A stretch of 59,225 nucleotides of DNA from Bacteroidia bacterium. Lineage in GTDB: Bacteria; Bacteroidota; Bacteroidia; AKYH767-A; OLB10. Both the position numbers and the translations under genes were made by a program. The stretch is taken from the NCBI GenBank assembly GCA_017995075.1, contig JAGOJO010000002.1, positions 30,319-89,543 of the forward strand. Direction: 5' to 3'. The notes below the pieces were generated by a model that worked only from the letters and a program-made list of their open reading frames with translations, was not told the DNA's origin and did not search any database. The first letter of the stretch is position 1. Every line of letters begins with the position of its first letter. Shown here one piece after another: positions 2,349 to 44,949 of the stretch.

Positions 2349-3312
2349 GATTTTTGAAATTGATTCAGCGGAGATGTTCCGGCAATATGCACTGGAGATT
2401 TTCCGTCGGCAAAGTCGTGAGTTACCGGTGTATCGGGAATTCCTGCAAGCCCTGAATTGTCATCCGGCAGATGTGAATTCGCTGGAACAAATTCCTTTTC
2501 TTCCGGTAGAATTCTTCAAGAGCAGAACAATACTTCTCGAAGGAAAACAACCACAGGCTGTCTTTACTTCCAGTGGTACACAAGGACAAACGACATCTTC
2601 CCATCCGGTTGCAGACCTTAAGTTATATGAAGAAAGTTTCATGTCTGCGTTCCGGAAGTTTTATGGTGACCCGGAAGAATATTGTCTGCTTGCACTATTG
2701 CCTTCTTATCTCGAACGAGAAGGCTCTTCGCTGGTCTATATGGCCGAGAAACTGGTAGTGGCCACCCGGAATCCCGAGAGTGGATTTTACCTCAATCAAT
2801 ACGAAGCATTGGCCGATAAACTGAAAATGTTGAAAGCGGCAAAGCAAAAAACGATTCTCCTCGGTGTGACCTATGCGCTGCTGGATCTTGCTGCCTCTTT
2901 TCCAGTCGATTTTCCTGAACTGATCATTATGGAAACAGGAGGGATGAAGGGTCGCCGCAAGGAAATGGTGCGGGAGGAAGTCCATAAAGTACTTTGTCAG
3001 GCATTCGGCATTCAGGATGTCCACTCTGAATATGGAATGACAGAGCTCTTATCGCAGGCGTATTCCAAAGGCCAGGGCATCTTTGCAACACCACCCTGGA
3101 TGAAAGTGATGATCCGTGATATCCATGATCCGTTTCTGTTGCTCCCTCCCGGGCGGACAGGCTGCATAAACATCATCGATCTCGCAAATGCAAACTCCTG
3201 TTCCTTCCTGGCAACCGGTGATCTGGGAAAATGCCATACCGACGAAACCTTCGAAGTTTCCGGACGATTTGATCAGGCGGAGATACGGGGCTGCAACCTC
3301 ATGGTAGAGTGA
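2332..3312 (+). CDS. LuxE/PaaK-like acyl-protein synthetase family protein
   Basis: ORF 2305..3312. The protein (FTSSGTQG..., METGGMKGRRKE) resembles the LuxE-type adenylate-forming family. ATG 2332 overlaps the nadB stop by 17 nt. Confidence 0.65.
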   Translation: MRDLHKIFEIDSAEMFRQYALEIFRRQSRELPVYREFLQALNCHPADVNSLEQIPFLPVEFFKSRTILLEGKQPQAVFTSSGTQGQTTSSHPVADLKLYEESFMSAFRKFYGDPEEYCLLALLPSYLEREGSSLVYMAEKLVVATRNPESGFYLNQYEALADKLKMLKAAKQKTILLGVTYALLDLAASFPVDFPELIIMETGGMKGRRKEMVREEVHKVLCQAFGIQDVHSEYGMTELLSQAYSKGQGIFATPPWMKVMIRDIHDPFLLLPPGRTGCINIIDLANANSCSFLATGDLGKCHTDETFEVSGRFDQAEIRGCNLMVE

Positions 3313-3436
3313 GAATTCTTCAATTTATCAACCCGATGGTTTGGTTTTTCAGTTGTTTACCTTCTCCGGGGATTTATTCACCTCATAATTGTTATCAATT
3401 GACCCCACAAGCCACCAATTAGCTGCTTTCCCTGCG

Positions 3437-3444
3437 TAAATTTG
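3437..3444 (+). promoter_or_regulatory. Bacteroidetes -7 box TAAATTTG
   Basis: Exact TAnnTTTG match, 20 nt upstream of ATG 3465. Confidence 0.45.
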
Positions 3445-3464
3445 CCTACCCTCTACATTAGGCA

Positions 3465-4850
3465 ATGGCCATCGGATATTCCCGTTATTTAAAGTCGATC
3501 TATTTATTCATAGACTTACTCCTGCTGAACCTCACGTTCTGTCTGGTGAGTTTCTATTTTAAATATCCCAACCTTTCCGCCGACTCCAATTTTCTTGCGC
3601 AGTTTCTCTACATCAATTTATTCTGGTCGATTACCATTTCCATCTTCCGGGTTCATGAGATAGACCGCGGACTACGATTTGAGCAAGTACTGGGAATGCT
3701 GTTCAGAGCATATGGACTATTTTCCATTATGCTGATTACCTTCCTCTATTTCTTCGATCAGTATTTCATTCCTGTCTTTCATTTTGAATTAAAAATATTC
3801 ATCTGGGGTCTGGTATTTCTTCTCTGGAGATCACTGGCAGCGTACATCATTAATTTCATTCGCCGCCGCGGGATGAACTATCGGAAAGTGATCATTGTTG
3901 GAAATGGAATTCCTGCAAGGGAGATGATGAAGTATTTCAATAAACATCCGGAGATGGGTTATAAACTCAAGGGTGTTTTTTGTGATGAATCACATATCCT
4001 CGATCCACAACAGGTCACCGGAAGGGTTAGTGAAGCCAAGGCCTACGTGCAGGAGAAGAAAATTGATGAAATTTACTGTTCGCTCTCGGGACTTGAAGCA
4101 GAGCAAGTGGCAGATCTGATGAATTTTGCCGACAATAATCTCGTACGCTTCAAGGTAGTTCCTGATTTCAGGGGATTCCTGAGCAGAAAAGTAAAAATTG
4201 ATTTCTATGATCTTGTTCCGGTGCTGAGTATGCGTCGTGAGCCTCTGCAGAATGGGTTTAACCGGATCATCAAACGCACCTTCGACATTGTTTTTTCACT
4301 GTTAGTGATTCTGCTGGTGTTTCCGATTGCGCTGCTTGTTATTGCTCCGTTGATAAAATTAAGTTCCCGCGGGCCTATTTTCTTCAAGCAACTTCGGTCG
4401 GGGAGAAATAACGAAGAATTTTACTGCTATAAATTCCGCACGATGCATGTAAATGATCAGGCGGATTCATTGCAGGCGAAAAAAGGTGATACACGCATAA
4501 CAGCGATTGGTGCATTTTTACGCAAGACGAGTCTCGATGAGTTGCCCCAGTTTTACAATGCACTCATCGGCAATATGTCGGTAGTTGGTCCGAGGCCGCA
4601 CATGCTTCGACACACCGAAGAATACTCCAAGCTTATTGATAAATTCATGGTGCGACAGCTGGTAAAACCCGGCGTGACAGGATGGGCCCAGGTTCATGGT
4701 TACAGAGGAGATACACGCGATAGTAGTCTTATGGAGAAAAGGGTAGAGTACGATGTATGGTACCTCGAAAACTGGTCGCTGATTCTCGATATCAAAATCG
4801 TAGTCATCACTGCATGGCAGGTAATTGCCAGTAAGTACACCGGAGAGTAG
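3465..4850 (+). CDS. Undecaprenyl-phosphate hexose-1-phosphate transferase (WcaJ/WbaP-type initiating sugar transferase)
   Basis: Multi-pass N-terminus, a central Rossmann-like segment (VIIVGNG) and a C-terminal bacterial sugar transferase domain (KRTFDIVFS...PRPHM...KPGVTGWAQV). Confidence 0.85.
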   Translation: MAIGYSRYLKSIYLFIDLLLLNLTFCLVSFYFKYPNLSADSNFLAQFLYINLFWSITISIFRVHEIDRGLRFEQVLGMLFRAYGLFSIMLITFLYFFDQYFIPVFHFELKIFIWGLVFLLWRSLAAYIINFIRRRGMNYRKVIIVGNGIPAREMMKYFNKHPEMGYKLKGVFCDESHILDPQQVTGRVSEAKAYVQEKKIDEIYCSLSGLEAEQVADLMNFADNNLVRFKVVPDFRGFLSRKVKIDFYDLVPVLSMRREPLQNGFNRIIKRTFDIVFSLLVILLVFPIALLVIAPLIKLSSRGPIFFKQLRSGRNNEEFYCYKFRTMHVNDQADSLQAKKGDTRITAIGAFLRKTSLDELPQFYNALIGNMSVVGPRPHMLRHTEEYSKLIDKFMVRQLVKPGVTGWAQVHGYRGDTRDSSLMEKRVEYDVWYLENWSLILDIKIVVITAWQVIASKYTGE

Positions 4851-23290: not shown

Positions 23291-23851
23291 ATGAAAAATA
23301 AAGGAATAATACTCGTGCTGGTACTTTGTTGCTGTATCCAGGTGCTTGTTTCCGGTCCGGCTGCTTTGAACGACTGGAAGATTTTACCGGGAGATACCAT
23401 TCACATAGGGAATCAGGTGTGGATGAAAAAGAATGTTTCTATTCCGATGCCTAATAGCTTCTGGTATGAGCGGGACTCTGTAAATAACGTTGCAAATGGT
23501 CGATTGTATTTCTTCAGCAGTGCATTGGCCGCTTGTCCGAAAGGATGGCATCTACCTACCGACGAAGAATGGCAGGAGCTCATCAATCATTATGGCGGCG
23601 ATTCACTGGCTGCGAAAGAATTATTGAAAGGCGGCAGCTCCCGCATGAAACTAACGTTATCGGGTTACCGAAGTTCTAATAGTTCGAATGATCTTTTCGG
23701 GAAGAAGGATGAGCAGGGTTTTTACTGGACATCCACCGTTAAAGGTGAACAGACGGCATACGCCAGATGTTTCACTGCAGGATCGCCGGTGGTGACAGAT
23801 ATGTATTATCGGCGGGCCAATGCGTTCTCCGTTCGATATATTCGTGATTGA
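23291..23851 (+). CDS. FISUMP (Fibrobacter succinogenes major paralogous) domain protein
   Basis: Signal peptide, then GNQVWMKKN...CPKGWHLPTDEEWQELINHYGG...YWTST...FSVRYIRD, the typical FISUMP pattern. Confidence 0.75.
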   Translation: MKNKGIILVLVLCCCIQVLVSGPAALNDWKILPGDTIHIGNQVWMKKNVSIPMPNSFWYERDSVNNVANGRLYFFSSALAACPKGWHLPTDEEWQELINHYGGDSLAAKELLKGGSSRMKLTLSGYRSSNSSNDLFGKKDEQGFYWTSTVKGEQTAYARCFTAGSPVVTDMYYRRANAFSVRYIRD

Positions 23852-23852
23852 T

Positions 23853-23900
23853 ACCATGTCAGCATTCGCCTTGCGAACGCTGACATGGTGTGATTTTCTT
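23853..23900 (+). terminator. Strong hairpin plus TGATTTTCTT (terminator-like; 5' part of cloverleaf element copy 1)
   Basis: ACCATGTCAGC-ATTCGCCTTGCGAAC-GCTGACATGGT with an inner TTCGC/GCGAA stem. It starts 2 nt after the FISUMP gene stop. Confidence 0.7.
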
Positions 23901-24050
23901 GACCGCGAAGTAGAGCCATGAGATGTACTTTACTAGCAAAGTACATCTCATGGCACACTTCTCGGCACGGTTAGAAATATGTATCGCCCTGAAGTGTGCC
24001 GTGAAAAAGTACAAAAGTGCTGTTTCACGGCTCTACTTCAGGGGATGTGA
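23853..24050 (+). repeat. Cloverleaf-folding intergenic element, copy 1 (candidate structured RNA or ssDNA element)
   Basis: Direct repeat of 25260-25460. The 3' ~160 nt differ at about 7 positions. On paper it forms a four-way junction: P1 23907-17/24029-39, P2 23918-51, P3 23952-61/23991-24000, P4 24001-06/24023-28. Confidence 0.8.
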
Positions 24051-24057
24051 TGGGATT

Positions 24058-24159
24058 GCTTCTAGCTTCAAGCTTCTAGCCTCTAGCCTCAAGCCTCAAG
24101 CCTCAGGCCTTTAGCTTCTAGCCTTCAGCCCGCAGCCAGTAGCCCAAGGCCAACAGCAG
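24058..24159 (+). repeat. Degenerate heptamer array (GCYNNNN), about 14.5 units
   Basis: GCTTCTA GCTTCAA GCTTCTA GCCTCTA GCCTCAA GCCTCAA GCCTCAG GCCTTTA GCTTCTA GCCTTCA GCCCGCA GCCAGTA GCCCAAG GCCAACA. Confidence 0.85.
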
Positions 24160-24320
24160 TTTCTAATTTTAATGAGATTTGTTTTAATAATTAGTTACTT
24201 GTTTCAACATGCAATTTTTCCCGTTCGGTAGTATGATGAACTTGATTGAGTGGATTTGAATTGACTTATGGGTTTAATTAAACTCTATTTGCTTCATCAT
24301 CTTTAAAAAACCTGAAAACA

Positions 24321-25241
24321 ATGAAAACAACTATCAAATTAATCGGAGTACTTATCATCCTCATCGGATGCATCTTCCCAAACCAAGCTTCTGCACAAGG
24401 TTGCGGAGTGCCAACCGGCTTAAGTGTAACTGTAGTTTCGACAACATCAACTCAGTTGAACTGGAATGCTATTCCGGGAGCAACACAGTATAATATCGAA
24501 ATTCAGAATGCTACTGGTAACAATGTTCCGTTCCTTCAAACGGCCAATGCTACTACCAACACATTTACAGTAATTAACCTGATAGCAGGTACTAATTACA
24601 AATTCAAAGTGCGCACGCGTTGTGGAGGAACTAAGTCTAACTGGTCAGCGTATTATTTCTTCACCAGTGGAAGCGGACAAACACAATGTAGTCTTCCCAC
24701 AGGCATTACCGTTAGTAATACAACTGCCACTTCTGCTACTGTAAGTTGGGGTGCTGCAGCAGGTGCATTGAGCTATCGCTTGCGTGTTGAAGACGGACAA
24801 AATAATCCGGTTGCTTTCCTGTTTGCAGTATCAACTGCGCAAACTTCCTATACAGTAACAGGATTAACATCTGCTACTAATTACAAAGCAAAACTGCGTA
24901 GCAATTGCGGTGGACTTCTTCACAGTTCATGGACAGCCTGGACTCCATTTACAACAGCTGCTCAACGTATCACTGATCTTCCTGAAGCGAATGTTCAGTT
25001 GTTCCCTAATCCTGCCAATGAAGTTGTTTATCTCGTACTTCCGGATGAATGGACTAACGGCCTTAGCGAAGTAACCATGACTGATATGACCGGCAAAGTT
25101 GTTTACTCTTTCAAAGCACAAAACTCATCTGAGTCTGCACAGTTCGAAGTACCTGTAAATGATTTCCCACAAGGTGTATACATCCTTTCAGTAAAAGCAG
25201 GAGCTGAAGAACATCATCAGCGCTTGAGTATCGTTCACTAA
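24321..25241 (+). CDS. Secreted protein with two fibronectin type III domains and a T9SS C-terminal sorting domain
   Basis: Signal peptide, two units of GCGVPTGLSV/CSLPTGITV...W...Y...V...TNYKFKVR/TNYKAKLR, and a C-terminal LFPNPANEVVYL...GVYILSV Por tail. Confidence 0.8.
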   Translation: MKTTIKLIGVLIILIGCIFPNQASAQGCGVPTGLSVTVVSTTSTQLNWNAIPGATQYNIEIQNATGNNVPFLQTANATTNTFTVINLIAGTNYKFKVRTRCGGTKSNWSAYYFFTSGSGQTQCSLPTGITVSNTTATSATVSWGAAAGALSYRLRVEDGQNNPVAFLFAVSTAQTSYTVTGLTSATNYKAKLRSNCGGLLHSSWTAWTPFTTAAQRITDLPEANVQLFPNPANEVVYLVLPDEWTNGLSEVTMTDMTGKVVYSFKAQNSSESAQFEVPVNDFPQGVYILSVKAGAEEHHQRLSIVH

Positions 25242-25259
25242 ACCCAAGTTGATTGATAT

Positions 25260-25310
25260 AAACCTCGAAAGCATTCGCCTTGCGAAAGCTTTCGAGGTTT
25301 GATTTTCTTG
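25260..25310 (+). terminator. Strong hairpin plus TGATTTTCTT (terminator-like; 5' part of cloverleaf element copy 2)
   Basis: AAACCTCGAAAGC-ATTCGCCTTGCGAA-AGCTTTCGAGGTTT. Confidence 0.7.
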
Positions 25311-25460
25311 ACCGCGAAGTAGAGCCATAAGAGGTACTTTACTAGCAAAGTACCTCTCATGGCACACTTCTCGGCACGGTTAGAAATATGTATCATCCTG
25401 AAGTGTGCCGTGAAATAGTACAAAAGTGCTGTTTCACGGCTCTACTTCAGGGGATGTGAT
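25260..25460 (+). repeat. Cloverleaf-folding intergenic element, copy 2
   Basis: See copy 1. The P2 stem carries a compensated T:A to G:C change relative to copy 1 (25333/25354). Confidence 0.8.
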
Positions 25461-25571
25461 TGATAGAGGTGGTAGAGGTGAGGTGTTTGATTGGTGTTCC
25501 GTTAACAAAGAGTGGAAACGATTAAATCCTTCTGGCCTACCAACGGTCAACGTATTTTAGGCAATTACACC

Positions 25572-25623
25572 GCAGCCCGCAGCCGGTAGCCAGTAGCTTG
25601 CAGCCTGTAGCCTTCGGCTAGCG
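25572..25623 (+). repeat. Degenerate heptamer array (GCYNNNN), about 7 units
   Basis: GCCCGCA GCCGGTA GCCAGTA GCTTGCA GCCTGTA GCCTTCG GCTAGCG. It shares the GCCCGCAGCC..GTAGCC words with the 24058-24159 array. Confidence 0.8.
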
Positions 25624-25688
25624 GCAAACCACTGTATTTCAATAGGTAACGACACTTGCTTCTTCTGTGAAAAACGGGCTTTATTGCT

Positions 25689-25696
25689 TACCTTTG
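25689..25696 (+). promoter_or_regulatory. Bacteroidetes -7 box TACCTTTG, 10 nt upstream of the ileS ATG
   Basis: Exact TAnnTTTG match. Confidence 0.5.
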
Positions 25697-25706
25697 CGCC
25701 CTTATT

Positions 25707-29097: not shown

Positions 29098-29976
29098 ATG
29101 GCCACTAAAAAACCAATTTCAAAGACCAAGAAGGCCGCGGCTAAAAAGCCTGCATCTAAGGCTCCAGCCAAAAAAACTGTTAAAAAGGCAGCTGCCCCTA
29201 AGAAATCTGCTGCTAAAGCTCCGGCAAAGAAGGTGGCTCCTAAAAAAGCGGCTCCTAAAAAACCTGTGGCTAAAAAAGAAGTAAAGAAAGCAGCTCCTAA
29301 AAAAGCAGCTTCTGCTCCAAAAAAGGCAGCAACTAAACCGGTAGCTAAAACCGCCGTGAAAAAGGCAGTAGCTAAACCGGCTCCGAAAGCAGCTCCTGCT
29401 CCAAAGGCAAAAAAACCTGCTCCGGCTCCCAAAGCAACGAAACCAGCTCCGGCTCCAAAGGTGGCACCTGTTAAAGCAGTAGCACCGAAACCGACGCCAG
29501 TTTCTAAGTCAGCTCCGGCAGTGAAAATACCTGTAGTACCAAGTGTGACGAACGAGAATAAAATGACAGAGAAAAAAGAGGAAGTAAAAAAAGTAGTGAC
29601 CAATTTGCGTTATAGTGATGCGGATCTGGCTGAATTCAAAACCCTGATTCAGGGTAAGCTGGTGGATGCCCGCGAAGAGTTGATTAACCTGCAGGCTCAG
29701 ATTCTGAATGCTAATGAGAATGGTACCGATGATACTGGTGCCTCTTTCAAAATGCTGGAAGATGGTTCTGAAACGCTGGCAAAAGAAGAGGCCGCTAACC
29801 TGGCAGCTCGTCAGAAGAAGTTTATCGAGCAGCTCGAGGCAGCATTACTTCGTATTGAAAACAAAACGTATGGAATCTGCCGTGTTACCGGTCAGTTGAT
29901 TCCTAAAGAGCGCTTACGTGCTGTTCCCGGAACAACGCAGAGTATGGAAGCCAAGCTGAAGCAATACAAAGATTAA
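29098..29976 (+). CDS. DksA/TraR-family protein with a ~150-aa histone-H1-like Lys/Ala/Pro-rich N-terminal extension
   Basis: The N-terminal 150 aa are about 80% K/A/P repeats (KKAAPKK, PAPKA). The C-terminus has a coiled coil plus YGICRVTGQLIPKERLRAVPGTTQS (a DksA finger with one Cys retained). The start is 1 nt after the ileS stop. Confidence 0.8.
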   Translation: MATKKPISKTKKAAAKKPASKAPAKKTVKKAAAPKKSAAKAPAKKVAPKKAAPKKPVAKKEVKKAAPKKAASAPKKAATKPVAKTAVKKAVAKPAPKAAPAPKAKKPAPAPKATKPAPAPKVAPVKAVAPKPTPVSKSAPAVKIPVVPSVTNENKMTEKKEEVKKVVTNLRYSDADLAEFKTLIQGKLVDAREELINLQAQILNANENGTDDTGASFKMLEDGSETLAKEEAANLAARQKKFIEQLEAALLRIENKTYGICRVTGQLIPKERLRAVPGTTQSMEAKLKQYKD

Positions 29977-43900: not shown

Positions 43901-43996
43901 GAATGCGGATTGAGTGTACATAATTTCAACGATATCAAAGTAGGCGATATTATTGAAGGGTACGAAAACGTTGCGATAAAACGTACGTTAGCGTAA
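40901..43996 (+). CDS. infB: Translation initiation factor IF-2
   Basis: 1031 aa with GTPase motifs ([21 protein letters not shown]). The long N-terminal low-complexity region contains K/A/E-rich and G/Q/P/R-rich tracts. Confidence 0.97.
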
Positions 43997-44186
43997 TACG
44001 GCGGCATACTGCTGCTTACGGCGGCATACTGCTGCTTACGGCGGCATACGGCGGCATACTGCTAGATACGGCTACATACGGCTAAGTACGGCTGCATACG
44101 GCTAGATACGGCGGCATACGGCTAGATACGGCTACATACGGCTACATACGGTTTTGAATAGCTGAATACGGCTTCATAGGGTGTTT
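43997..44186 (+). repeat. Degenerate decamer array (TACGGCNNCA), about 19 phased units, starting on the base after the infB stop
   Basis: The first 40 nt are an exact 20-nt duplication (TACGGCGGCATACTGCTGCT x2). These are followed by TACGGCGGCA, TACGGCTACA, TACGGCTAGA and similar units with no phase slip. Confidence 0.9.
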
Positions 44187-44360
44187 AGTGTTTTGATGAG
44201 AATTGCTACTAAGGTATGCAAGCATCATTTTATTGAAGACTATCAACGTAATTTACTAAAGAAAACAAATTTTTGTTGCCAGTAGTCAGTAAATAACTGT
44301 GAACATCAGTATATCTGTAGAAATCGGTATATCGGTATATCCGTATGAATCTGTAGCCAT

Positions 44361-44440
44361 CCGTCTATCCGTCTATCAGTCTATCAGTCTATTAGTCTAT
44401 CCGTTTATCCGTATTTCAGTCTATCCGTTTATCTGTATGA
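44361..44440 (-). repeat. Degenerate octamer array (CCGTCTAT/CAGTCTAT; reverse complement ATAGACGG), 10 units
   Basis: CCGTCTAT CCGTCTAT CAGTCTAT CAGTCTAT TAGTCTAT CCGTTTAT CCGTATTT CAGTCTAT CCGTTTAT CTGTATGA. Confidence 0.85.
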
Positions 44441-44524
44441 ATCCGTAAAAGCCGTATACAGCCGTATAAAACCGTATAAAGCCGTATCAAACCGTATAAA
44501 GCCGCATAAAGCCGCATACAGCCC
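44441..44524 (-). repeat. Degenerate decamer array (GCCGTATAAA; reverse complement TTTATACGGC), about 8 units, inverted relative to 43997-44186
   Basis: ATCCGTAAAA GCCGTATACA GCCGTATAAA ACCGTATAAA GCCGTATCAA ACCGTATAAA GCCGCATAAA GCCGCATACA. The core ATACGGC is on the opposite strand to the left array. Confidence 0.9.
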
Positions 44525-44529
44525 AAATC

Positions 44530-44949
44530 CTACCTCACTCCCAAATACGCTGCAATCAAGATTAGAATAACACCCGCTGCACTATATGCCATTTTCTGAT
44601 TCCTAAGCTTTGAAACATAATTAGTAAGTGCTACCTGTATGAATGTGATTTCATTTAATGTTTTGTCTGCTTCTTCGTCACTTAGATAGCCTAGTTTTTT
44701 AGCAAGTAGGATTTGTGTTTCAAGCTCAAATGACGAGCCAATGGCGATGTCCATGAAGTGTGCCTGATCTGGAATCGTGCGTCTTCCACAGCCTTCAGAA
44801 ATATTGGAAGGAATAGAAACAGATGATTTCCGGATTTGATTGGTGAGTGCAAACCTCTCTTCTTTCGGAAAGGGCTTGGTTTGGTTGTAGATGTCAATGG
44901 TTAAGTCCATTGCTTTGCTCCAAATGTGGAGTTTCTTAAAGTTTCTCAT
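44530..44949 (-). CDS. Four-helix-bundle protein (23S rRNA intervening-sequence protein / S23p family) with hydrophobic C-terminal extension
   Basis: FKKLHIWSKAMDL...IYN.TK.FPKEERFALTNQIRKSSVSIPSNISEG...F...A.GS..ELETQ is the classic family signature. The last ~25 aa (AAGVILILIAAYLGV) are atypical. Confidence 0.8.
   Translation of the reverse strand: MRNFKKLHIWSKAMDLTIDIYNQTKPFPKEERFALTNQIRKSSVSIPSNISEGCGRRTIPDQAHFMDIAIGSSFELETQILLAKKLGYLSDEEADKTLNEITFIQVALTNYVSKLRNQKMAYSAAGVILILIAAYLGVR

Follow-up and report, generated by a model that had tools for sequence, protein, structure and literature searches.

What kind of element is a ~200-nt sequence that stands, in two direct copies, on either side of a gene for a cargo protein of the type IX secretion system (T9SS)? 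The question is raised by a 59,225-nt stretch of DNA from a Bacteroidia bacterium (assembly GCA_017995075.1, contig JAGOJO010000002.1, positions 30,319 to 89,543; hereafter the window), in which the two copies alternate with a FISUMP-domain gene, an fn3/Por_Secre_tail gene (the T9SS cargo gene, fn3 gene below) and ileS. Each copy had previously been read, from its sequence alone, as a gapless four-way junction of helices P1 to P4, and three identities had been offered: a structured RNA, a single-stranded DNA (ssDNA) recombination or replication structure, and a novel repeat resembling repetitive extragenic palindromes (REP) or miniature inverted-repeat transposable elements (MITE). Our analysis supports the last of these but not a structured RNA with a gapless junction. 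The repeat is real and uncatalogued, and it belongs to the mosaic repeats of extragenic palindromes; what is conserved, gained and lost as a unit is the single hairpin. More specifically, with a probability that we put at about 0.7, each repeat is a mosaic extragenic element similar to REPs, bacterial interspersed mosaic elements (BIME) and REPINs (REP doublets forming hairpins; Bertels & Rainey 2011, PMC3116915), assembled from a terminator-like hairpin and two inverted copies of a dispersed palindromic module.

Two predicted hairpins in place of a four-way junction

Copy 1 (23845-24051) and copy 2 (25254-25460) are 91% identical over 207 nt without gaps, or 93.7% over 191 nt by alignment (E=2e-81), which bears out their description as direct repeats. 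Across the 3' ~160 nt they differ at 6-7 positions, in line with the ~7 originally counted, and these include, as described, a compensated pair in P2 (T:A to G:C) and an A.C mismatch in the same helix. There is no third copy of the repeat within the 59-kb window. Copy 1 overlaps the TGA stop (23849-51) of the FISUMP-domain gene, while copy 2 begins just past the TAA stop (25239-41) of the fn3 gene. Compared with shuffled sequences, the repeats fold strongly on either strand (z about -12 to -13). No Rfam family matched them at gathering thresholds, so the novelty claimed for the repeat stands, and a permissive Rfam scan gave only sub-threshold look-alikes of microRNA-type hairpins. A coding explanation was rejected: the short open reading frames (ORFs) that overlap the repeats differ between the copies and, as noted earlier, share no reading frame. 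Two Logan contigs of 1.3 kb that carry the fn3 gene (L003, L004) end inside copy 1 on one side and inside copy 2 on the other, which means that the repeat fragments short-read assemblies at this locus.

Helices P1 to P4 can be drawn exactly as proposed (dot-bracket check). However, the minimum-energy and centroid structures of both copies, computed as RNA and as DNA, are three separate hairpins and not a four-way junction: a first hairpin, H0, at the start of each repeat, which the earlier description lacked, followed by hairpins A and B (Table 1). Hairpin A has the form CCGCGAAGTAGAGCC-(palindrome)-GGCACACTTCTCGG, and hairpin B, read on the minus strand, is CCCCTGAAGTAGAGCC-(palindrome)-GGCACACTTCAGGG, the same unit inverted; that is, B is the reverse complement of an A-type unit. 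This unit, the module, is an imperfect palindrome of 55-75 nt with the plan CCnnGAAGT-AGA-GCC(variable palindrome)GGC-AC-ACTTCnnGG, in which a 9-bp basal stem (CCnnGAAGT/ACTTCnnGG) leads through an invariant asymmetric internal loop (AGA opposite AC) and a GCC/GGC clamp to a covarying variable stem and a small loop. All of the 11 modules that we aligned fold as this same hairpin. A covariance model of the module (CM R1) finds four copies in the 59-kb window, all at this one spot. Two other candidates in the window were set aside as chance matches: an exact GGCACACTTC at 44755 (minus strand), which lies inside a gene and has no partner arm, and a weak CM R1 match at 4087-4159 (E=0.08) inside a sugar-transferase gene.

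When two copies of one unit are inverted relative to each other, arm a is complementary to a' and arm b to b', and perfect P1 and P3 helices result. The gapless four-way junction is a geometric by-product of this head-to-head doublet. In core energies, the two-hairpin fold reaches -77.7 kcal/mol, and the junction -57.6 kcal/mol as drawn or -75.8 kcal/mol when enforced with extra pairs; by these predictions the junction is a near-isoenergetic alternative, ~2 kcal/mol worse, and not the favoured fold. Beyond the shared arms, further pairs are open to the hairpin fold but not to the junction (CCGC/TCGG in A, CCCT/AGGG in B).

Covariation among homologues

We compared the two folds in two alignments, one of 11 modules (A2) and one of six composites (elements combining H0 with one or two modules), both of which are small sets of related sequences. 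In A2, 89% of cells are paired under the hairpin structure, 12 of the 28 pairs change on both sides, and the covariation score is 0.32 versus at most 0.13 for slid controls. Basal pair 7-68 is CG in five modules, GC in five and AU in one; since it lies outside P1 and P3, it is specific to the hairpin fold. Under the junction structure, covarying pairs among the composites are confined to H0 (4), P2 (4) and P4 (1). P1 has 10 of 11 pairs invariant, with the 11th departing by a single unpaired cell, and all 10 pairs of P3 are invariant. The two-hairpin structure adds two covarying pairs, both in the basal stem of hairpin A, so that the only pairs which discriminate between the folds and also covary belong to the hairpins.

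These data bear directly on the main proposal of the sequence-only reading, a conserved non-coding RNA with the gapless junction as its functional fold. In its favour, P1 to P4 are perfect and abut without linkers in copies 1 and 2 and in a composite at another locus (L009), folding is strong (z about -12), and the element belongs to no known family. Further copies, to which the proposal had looked for support, do exist, but they lack P1 and P3 instead of keeping them: both helices are largely or wholly gapped in three of the six composites (L032 IG1, L032 IG2 and L008), and among the six homologues there is not one covarying P1 or P3 pair, where a conserved junction RNA calls for compensatory change in all four helices. 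The junction is, moreover, not the minimum-energy fold, follows entirely from the presence of two inverted copies of one module, and belongs to an element that sister species do not have (see below). We regard the proposal of a dedicated junction RNA as largely refuted and give it very little chance. More generally, a perfect junction without linkers can come from two inverted imperfect palindromes, and comparative support is needed before a new class of RNA is claimed on such a basis.

Counted in the a-to-b orientation, mismatches comprise about 8-10 independent A.C against two G.T. The excess of A.C suggests that the strand GAAGTGTGCC...GGCTCTACTTC is the one that folds better, with numbers too small to rely on.

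Modules at other loci

The module is not confined to the window. A metagenome scan for both arms returned real relatives as well as chance matches in high-GC DNA, and a scan of GTDB representative genomes for the exact arms found three loci (L021, L023 and L024), all in one Lake Mendota 'Bacteroidia bacterium' metagenome-assembled genome (MAG). Ten candidates (L005, L006, L011, L014, L017-L020, L022 and L025) were discarded as chance pattern matches in high-GC or coding DNA. No match came from a contig scan of the genome collection with a 21-mer from the P3/loop boundary, from viral contigs searched with the arm and H0 patterns, or from plasmid and phage collections. In all, nine distinct module loci are known, in uncultured Bacteroidia. 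Their neighbours are unrelated and include genes for FISUMP and fn3 proteins, IleRS (ileS), MsrA, DAO, a KdsB-like protein, a T9SS cargo protein, a histidine kinase, MurF-Alr, PLD, Omp28, an LD-carboxypeptidase and an S46 peptidase. Every module is intergenic and forms an imperfect hairpin, as REPs do. An association with T9SS cargo genes was considered and rejected, given that modules elsewhere adjoin unrelated genes (MsrA, KdsB-like, histidine kinase and others).

Arrangements differ from locus to locus. In L009 a complete composite with 90% identity to copy 1 lies between unrelated genes; L008, L013 and L021 have one module each; a locus represented by three contigs (L007, L010 and L016) has a full module and an inverted mini module of 26 nt, and in L024 a full module is accompanied by a mini module in direct orientation. 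Homologous contexts thus show the mini module inverted (L016), direct (L024) or not at all (L021). Inverted doublets with a short spacer occur in copies 1 and 2, L009 and L016/L007/L010, next to singlets and the one direct pair. The window orthologue of the S46 peptidase gene at L024 is without a module. At L023 (116-193, minus strand) the module is nested or stuttered, with its left arm in tandem duplicate (CCCTGAAGTAGAGCC CTGAAGTAGAGCC) and a small GAAGT...ACTTC hairpin as its interior.

Gain and loss at the FISUMP-fn3-ileS locus

Relatives whose IleRS is 84-90% identical to that of the window (L026, L029/L030, L031 and L033) have the gene order FISUMP - EamA - (fn3) - ileS and no element, and CM R1 detected no module in the relatives' loci searched (~100 kb). 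The fn3/T9SS gene is present in only some of these relatives. A strain with 98% IleRS identity (L032) shares the arrangement of the window and has both orthologous elements, each with one module. This distribution indicates that the element was probably gained recently, with sister species at 84-90% IleRS identity having none. The EamA gene is absent from the window and from L032, where element 1 and its heptamer array stand in its place; in the 84-90% relatives the EamA-family transporter gene occupies L026 8934-9824, L029 683-1582, L031 8775-9647 and L033 3187-4062 (versus window 23852-24320).

The two one-module elements of L032 are joined differently. In IG1 the sequence reads GACCGC-GAAGTGTGCC...GGCTTTGCTTC, with the flank of arm a joined to b', and in IG2 it reads TAAGTTGAGCC-(P4)-GGCTCTACTTC, with an a-like arm joined to P4-a'. 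At the ends of the 84-nt difference between L032 and the window stand short direct repeats, GAAGT or GCC, common to arms a and b'. With one module per element, the junction cannot form at either orthologous site of the closest relative.

The same comparison bears on whether the repeats are recombination sites around a mobile fn3/T9SS cassette, either attC-like or the attL/attR ends of an islet. Direct repeats do flank a gene that is variably present among relatives, and the succession of basal stem, unpaired spacer, second stem and variable tip loosely resembles a folded attC. However, an fn3 orthologue in L029 (69% amino acid identity; likewise L030) occupies the same place without any repeat, and the repeats are therefore not the boundaries of an fn3 cassette. 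Also against this explanation, the arms (CCCTGAAGT/ACTTCAGGG) contain no RYYYAAC/GTTRRRY core, neighbouring modules are mutually inverted, no integrase was found in the window, and modules elsewhere stand beside core housekeeping genes. Such a cassette is extremely improbable, and the bracketing of the T9SS cargo gene, to which the sequence-only reading drew attention, is incidental.

Mosaic structure of the composites

The elements are combinations of H0, linker, one or more modules, edge motif and heptamers, and their make-up varies among copies 1 and 2, L009, L008 and L032, as in BIMEs. The TGATTGATA motif is kept ahead of H0 in copies 1 and 2, L008, L009 and L032. The spacer between modules is kept in copies 1 and 2 and L009, and is lost along with module A in L032. 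A TGATTGAT motif is found at both edges of the composites and is identical at every site, which makes it a part of the element or a preferred target and not a random target-site duplication.

Arrays of 7-nt units, (AGCYTNN)n or (AGCCNNN)n, follow the composites ahead of the promoter of the next gene, and also occur in L008 (~2640-2665) and in both L032 spacers (IG1 and IG2); their length in the window differs from that in L032. The ileS promoter lies outside the repeat. Its candidate is a TACCTTTG box (of the Bacteroidota TAnnTTTG -7 type) at 25691-25698, kept in L026, L029 and L032, and its position 9 nt before the ileS start would imply a very short leader.

Hairpin H0 and transcript ends

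The outer stem of H0 is wholly different between copies 1 and 2, yet paired in both, and is different again in L009 (CCCCGTCAGC/GCTGACGGGG); the inner stem TTCGC-CTT-GCGAA and the downstream TGTGATTTTCTTGA are conserved. Across six homologues, 95.5% of cells are paired, with two-sided changes in 4 of the 15 pairs. H0 has a stem of 13-14 bp that lies 3-19 nt past a stop codon and is followed by UGUGAUUUUCUUG, with a short U-tract 3-5 nt after the stem. Since H0 comes immediately past stop codons and has a U-rich tail, it most likely serves the gene upstream as an intrinsic terminator. In L029, the 900-nt fn3-ileS spacer (2724-3628) contains another hairpin family, with four hairpins that have a CCCGTAAG or CCTGTAAG loop, two of them followed by T-runs, which suggests that each lineage has its own repeated terminator-like hairpins.

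Could the whole element be host-selected RNA, i.e., stem-loops of 3' untranslated regions that serve as terminators, read-through insulators or exonuclease blocks and are copied by gene conversion, with no transposition machinery? At six of the nine loci a module follows a gene and shares its orientation, H0 or a module starts 1-15 nt past the stop codon in copies 1 and 2 and L024, the stems covary, and the G.U versus A.C asymmetry hints at one folded strand. A plain stabiliser hairpin, however, should need neither sequence-invariant arms nor an asymmetric loop conserved across lineages; with respect to the upstream gene, modules point either way (window A versus B), and the orthologous sites of sister species do without them. 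On balance, RNA function alone is an improbable account of the element.

A possibly mobile or mobilised hairpin

As REP/BIME/REPIN-like elements, the modules would behave as non-coding hairpin DNA. They would spread to new intergenic sites either through a trans-acting enzyme that recognises their structure or through recombination or gene conversion, and slippage at the GAAGT and GCC direct repeats of their arms would remove them rapidly. Modules that are transcribed at gene 3' ends may also provide additional stem-loops, stopping read-through or 3' exonucleases. That arms and internal loop are so strictly kept in two lineages points to a putative specific factor that recognises them.

Several observations weigh against this interpretation. 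Neither the window nor the neighbourhood of any module yielded a transposase or recombinase (Pfam, no transposase match), and there is no target-site duplication at filled versus empty sites (L021 versus L024/L016) or around modules. Copy number looks low, with four modules in 59 kb at one spot and three exact-arm loci in one MAG, against tens to hundreds per genome for classical REPs. The relatives were found by an exact-arm pattern, and the invariance of their arms is partly by construction; L032, found through synteny, has diverged arms. A simple consensus terminator scanner gave no call on H0. Finally, three loci keep the doublet together with its spacer (87-94% identity), and pairing between the modules may have a role in the doublet, as the junction costs only ~2 kcal/mol more.

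This last point leads to a REPIN-type alternative, in which the head-to-head doublet is the replicating unit, with a:a' and b:b' pairing (P1/P3) or an ssDNA cruciform or junction read by a trans-acting enzyme, and singlets are decayed, immobile remnants. It agrees with the three loci that keep the full doublet and spacer (copies 1 and 2, L009), with the near-isoenergetic junction, and with L032 IG2, in which arm a is joined to P4-a', i.e., a junction minus its P2 and P3 arms; in Pseudomonas, REPIN doublets are mobile and singlets are remnants (PMC3116915, PMC3337134). However, full-length singlets with intact, covarying basal stems exist at independent loci and in another lineage (L008, L013, L021, and the full modules of L024 and L016), the mini module is direct in L024, P1 and P3 show no covariation, and no gene resembling a REP-associated tyrosine transposase (RAYT) was seen in the window or among module neighbours. 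We consider the doublet unlikely to be the replicating unit, and a REPIN-like role for the doublet conformer is similarly doubtful. A related and speculative proposal, for which we would not give good odds, is that the arms and AGA/AC loop form the recognition site of a putative structure-specific ssDNA or RNA enzyme, with the doublet junction or cruciform as its substrate for copying, inversion and precise arm deletion. If true, the doublet would be a replicator akin to REPINs but structurally of a new type, in a phylum with none characterised, and a cognate enzyme, if one exists, would extend REP/RAYT-type biology to the Bacteroidota.

We thus return to the single hairpin as the unit, and to a family of extragenic palindromic modules, uncatalogued until now, in uncultured Bacteroidia of activated sludge and lakes. 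The modules turn over fast between strains and break short-read assemblies at their loci, and they could serve as strain markers.

Features of the locus and other repeats in the window

Table 1. Parts of the two composites and the heptamer arrays that follow them (window coordinates).
Feature	Position	Strand	Remarks
Copy 1, TGATTGATA motif	23845-23853	+	Overlaps TGA stop of FISUMP-domain gene; recurs at 3' edge of composites
Copy 1, hairpin H0	23854-23888	+	Outer stem CCATGTCAGC/GCTGACATGG; inner TTCGC-CTT-GCGAA; by folding
Copy 1, U-rich tail and linker TGTGATTTTCTTGA	23889-23902	+	Conserved in 6/6 composites
Copy 1, module A	23903-23965	+	CCGC-GAAGTAGAGCC-(P2 palindrome 23918-23951)-GGCACACTTC-TCGG; minimum-energy hairpin; CM R1 87.7 bits
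Copy 1, inter-module spacer	23966-23986	+	Most of the 29-nt loop earlier assigned to P3
Copy 1, module B, inverted	23987-24043	-	Minus strand: CCCCTGAAGTAGAGCC-(P4-type palindrome)-GGCACACTTCAGGG; CM R1 67 bits
Copy 1, 3' edge motif GATGTGAT	24044-24054	+	Shortened; strain variant L015 has GATGTGATTGATGGAGGTGAT
Heptamer tandem array (AGCYTNN)n	24055-24160	+	After copy 1; length unlike L032
Copy 2, TGATTGATA motif	25250-25258	+	9 nt past TAA stop of fn3/T9SS gene
Copy 2, hairpin H0	25260-25300	+	Outer stem AAACCTCGAAAGC/GCTTTCGAGGTTT, fully paired; inner stem as copy 1
Copy 2, U-rich tail and linker GATTTTCTTGA	25301-25311	+	
Copy 2, module A	25312-25374	+	Folded hairpin; CM R1 82.8 bits
Copy 2, spacer	25375-25395	+	
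Copy 2, module B, inverted	25396-25452	-	Minus strand; CM R1 62.8 bits
Copy 2, 3' edge motif GATGTGATTGATAG	25453-25466	+	
Heptamer tandem array (AGCCNNN)n	25570-25625	+	After copy 2, upstream of ileS

Other tandem repeats are present in the window. The spacer between infB and the next gene (43996-44525) consists wholly of three short tandem arrays, (ATACGGCNGC) x15.6, (ATCCGTCT) x9 and (GTATAAAGCC) x9, of which the outer two are reverse complements of each other (ATACGGC/GCCGTAT), so that a very long imperfect hairpin could form. Similar ATCTGTA/ATCCGTA arrays flank modules in L007, L010, L016, L021 and L024, and an array of CACATCCC flanks the L023 module. Adjoining the array region of the window is a small gene (44530-44949, minus strand) for a '23S rRNA intervening sequence protein' (PF05635, E=3e-36) with a weak bAvd-like match. 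Downstream of ileS, a 292-amino-acid ORF without a Pfam match contains 15-nt and 27-nt tandem repeats at 29236-29460 (AAACCAGCTCCGGCTCCCAAAGCAAAA), which points to a low-complexity repeat protein.

Comparison with known systems

MITE-like repeats such as the Correia/NEMIS elements of Neisseria and the enterobacterial ERIC/IRU sequences have terminal inverted repeats, measure tens to ~150 nt, are intergenic, form stem-loops in transcripts and show insertion polymorphism, features that they have in common with the module, whose stem-loops in transcripts are predicted. The module likewise has inverted arms, and differs in that no target-site duplication, parent insertion sequence or internal site like that for integration host factor (IHF) was seen. 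Its interior is palindromic and covaries, which argues that selection acts on the hairpin and not just on its two ends. Integron attC sites, which lie at the 3' ends of genes, are also imperfect hairpins; they are about as long, their unpaired spacer is conserved and their tip is variable. The module differs from them in having no R''/R' core consensus, in its mixed orientations and housekeeping neighbours, and in the lack of an integrase or cassette array.

The closest likeness is to the REPs and BIMEs of Enterobacteria and Pseudomonas (REP definitions from PMC3733652), which are extragenic imperfect palindromes, located mainly close behind genes and in the gaps between convergent or co-directional ones. 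They occur singly or clustered in alternating orientation with conserved linkers, and their presence varies between close relatives. The conserved left arm of the module contains GTAG (GAA-GTAG-AGCC), invariant inside GAAGTAGAGCC, but this GTAG is internal and its GT pairs with AC of the right arm, whereas the REP tetranucleotide (GTAG or CGTC) is unpaired and terminal. The modules are also longer (55-75 versus 20-40 nt), their apparent copy number is low, and Pfam shows no RAYT or transposase match in the window or beside them. Their host is an uncultured member of the Bacteroidia, and the element is joined to one particular terminator-like hairpin, with heptamer arrays following it.

The singlets described here look intact and conserved, in contrast to those of REPINs, and each unit is a long stable hairpin, so that pairing between units gives a four-way junction instead of one long hairpin. 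The likeness to REPINs lies in the arrangement: two inverted palindromic units separated by a short spacer, present as a doublet at several loci and as singlets too, which can pair with each other just as two inverted REPs can.

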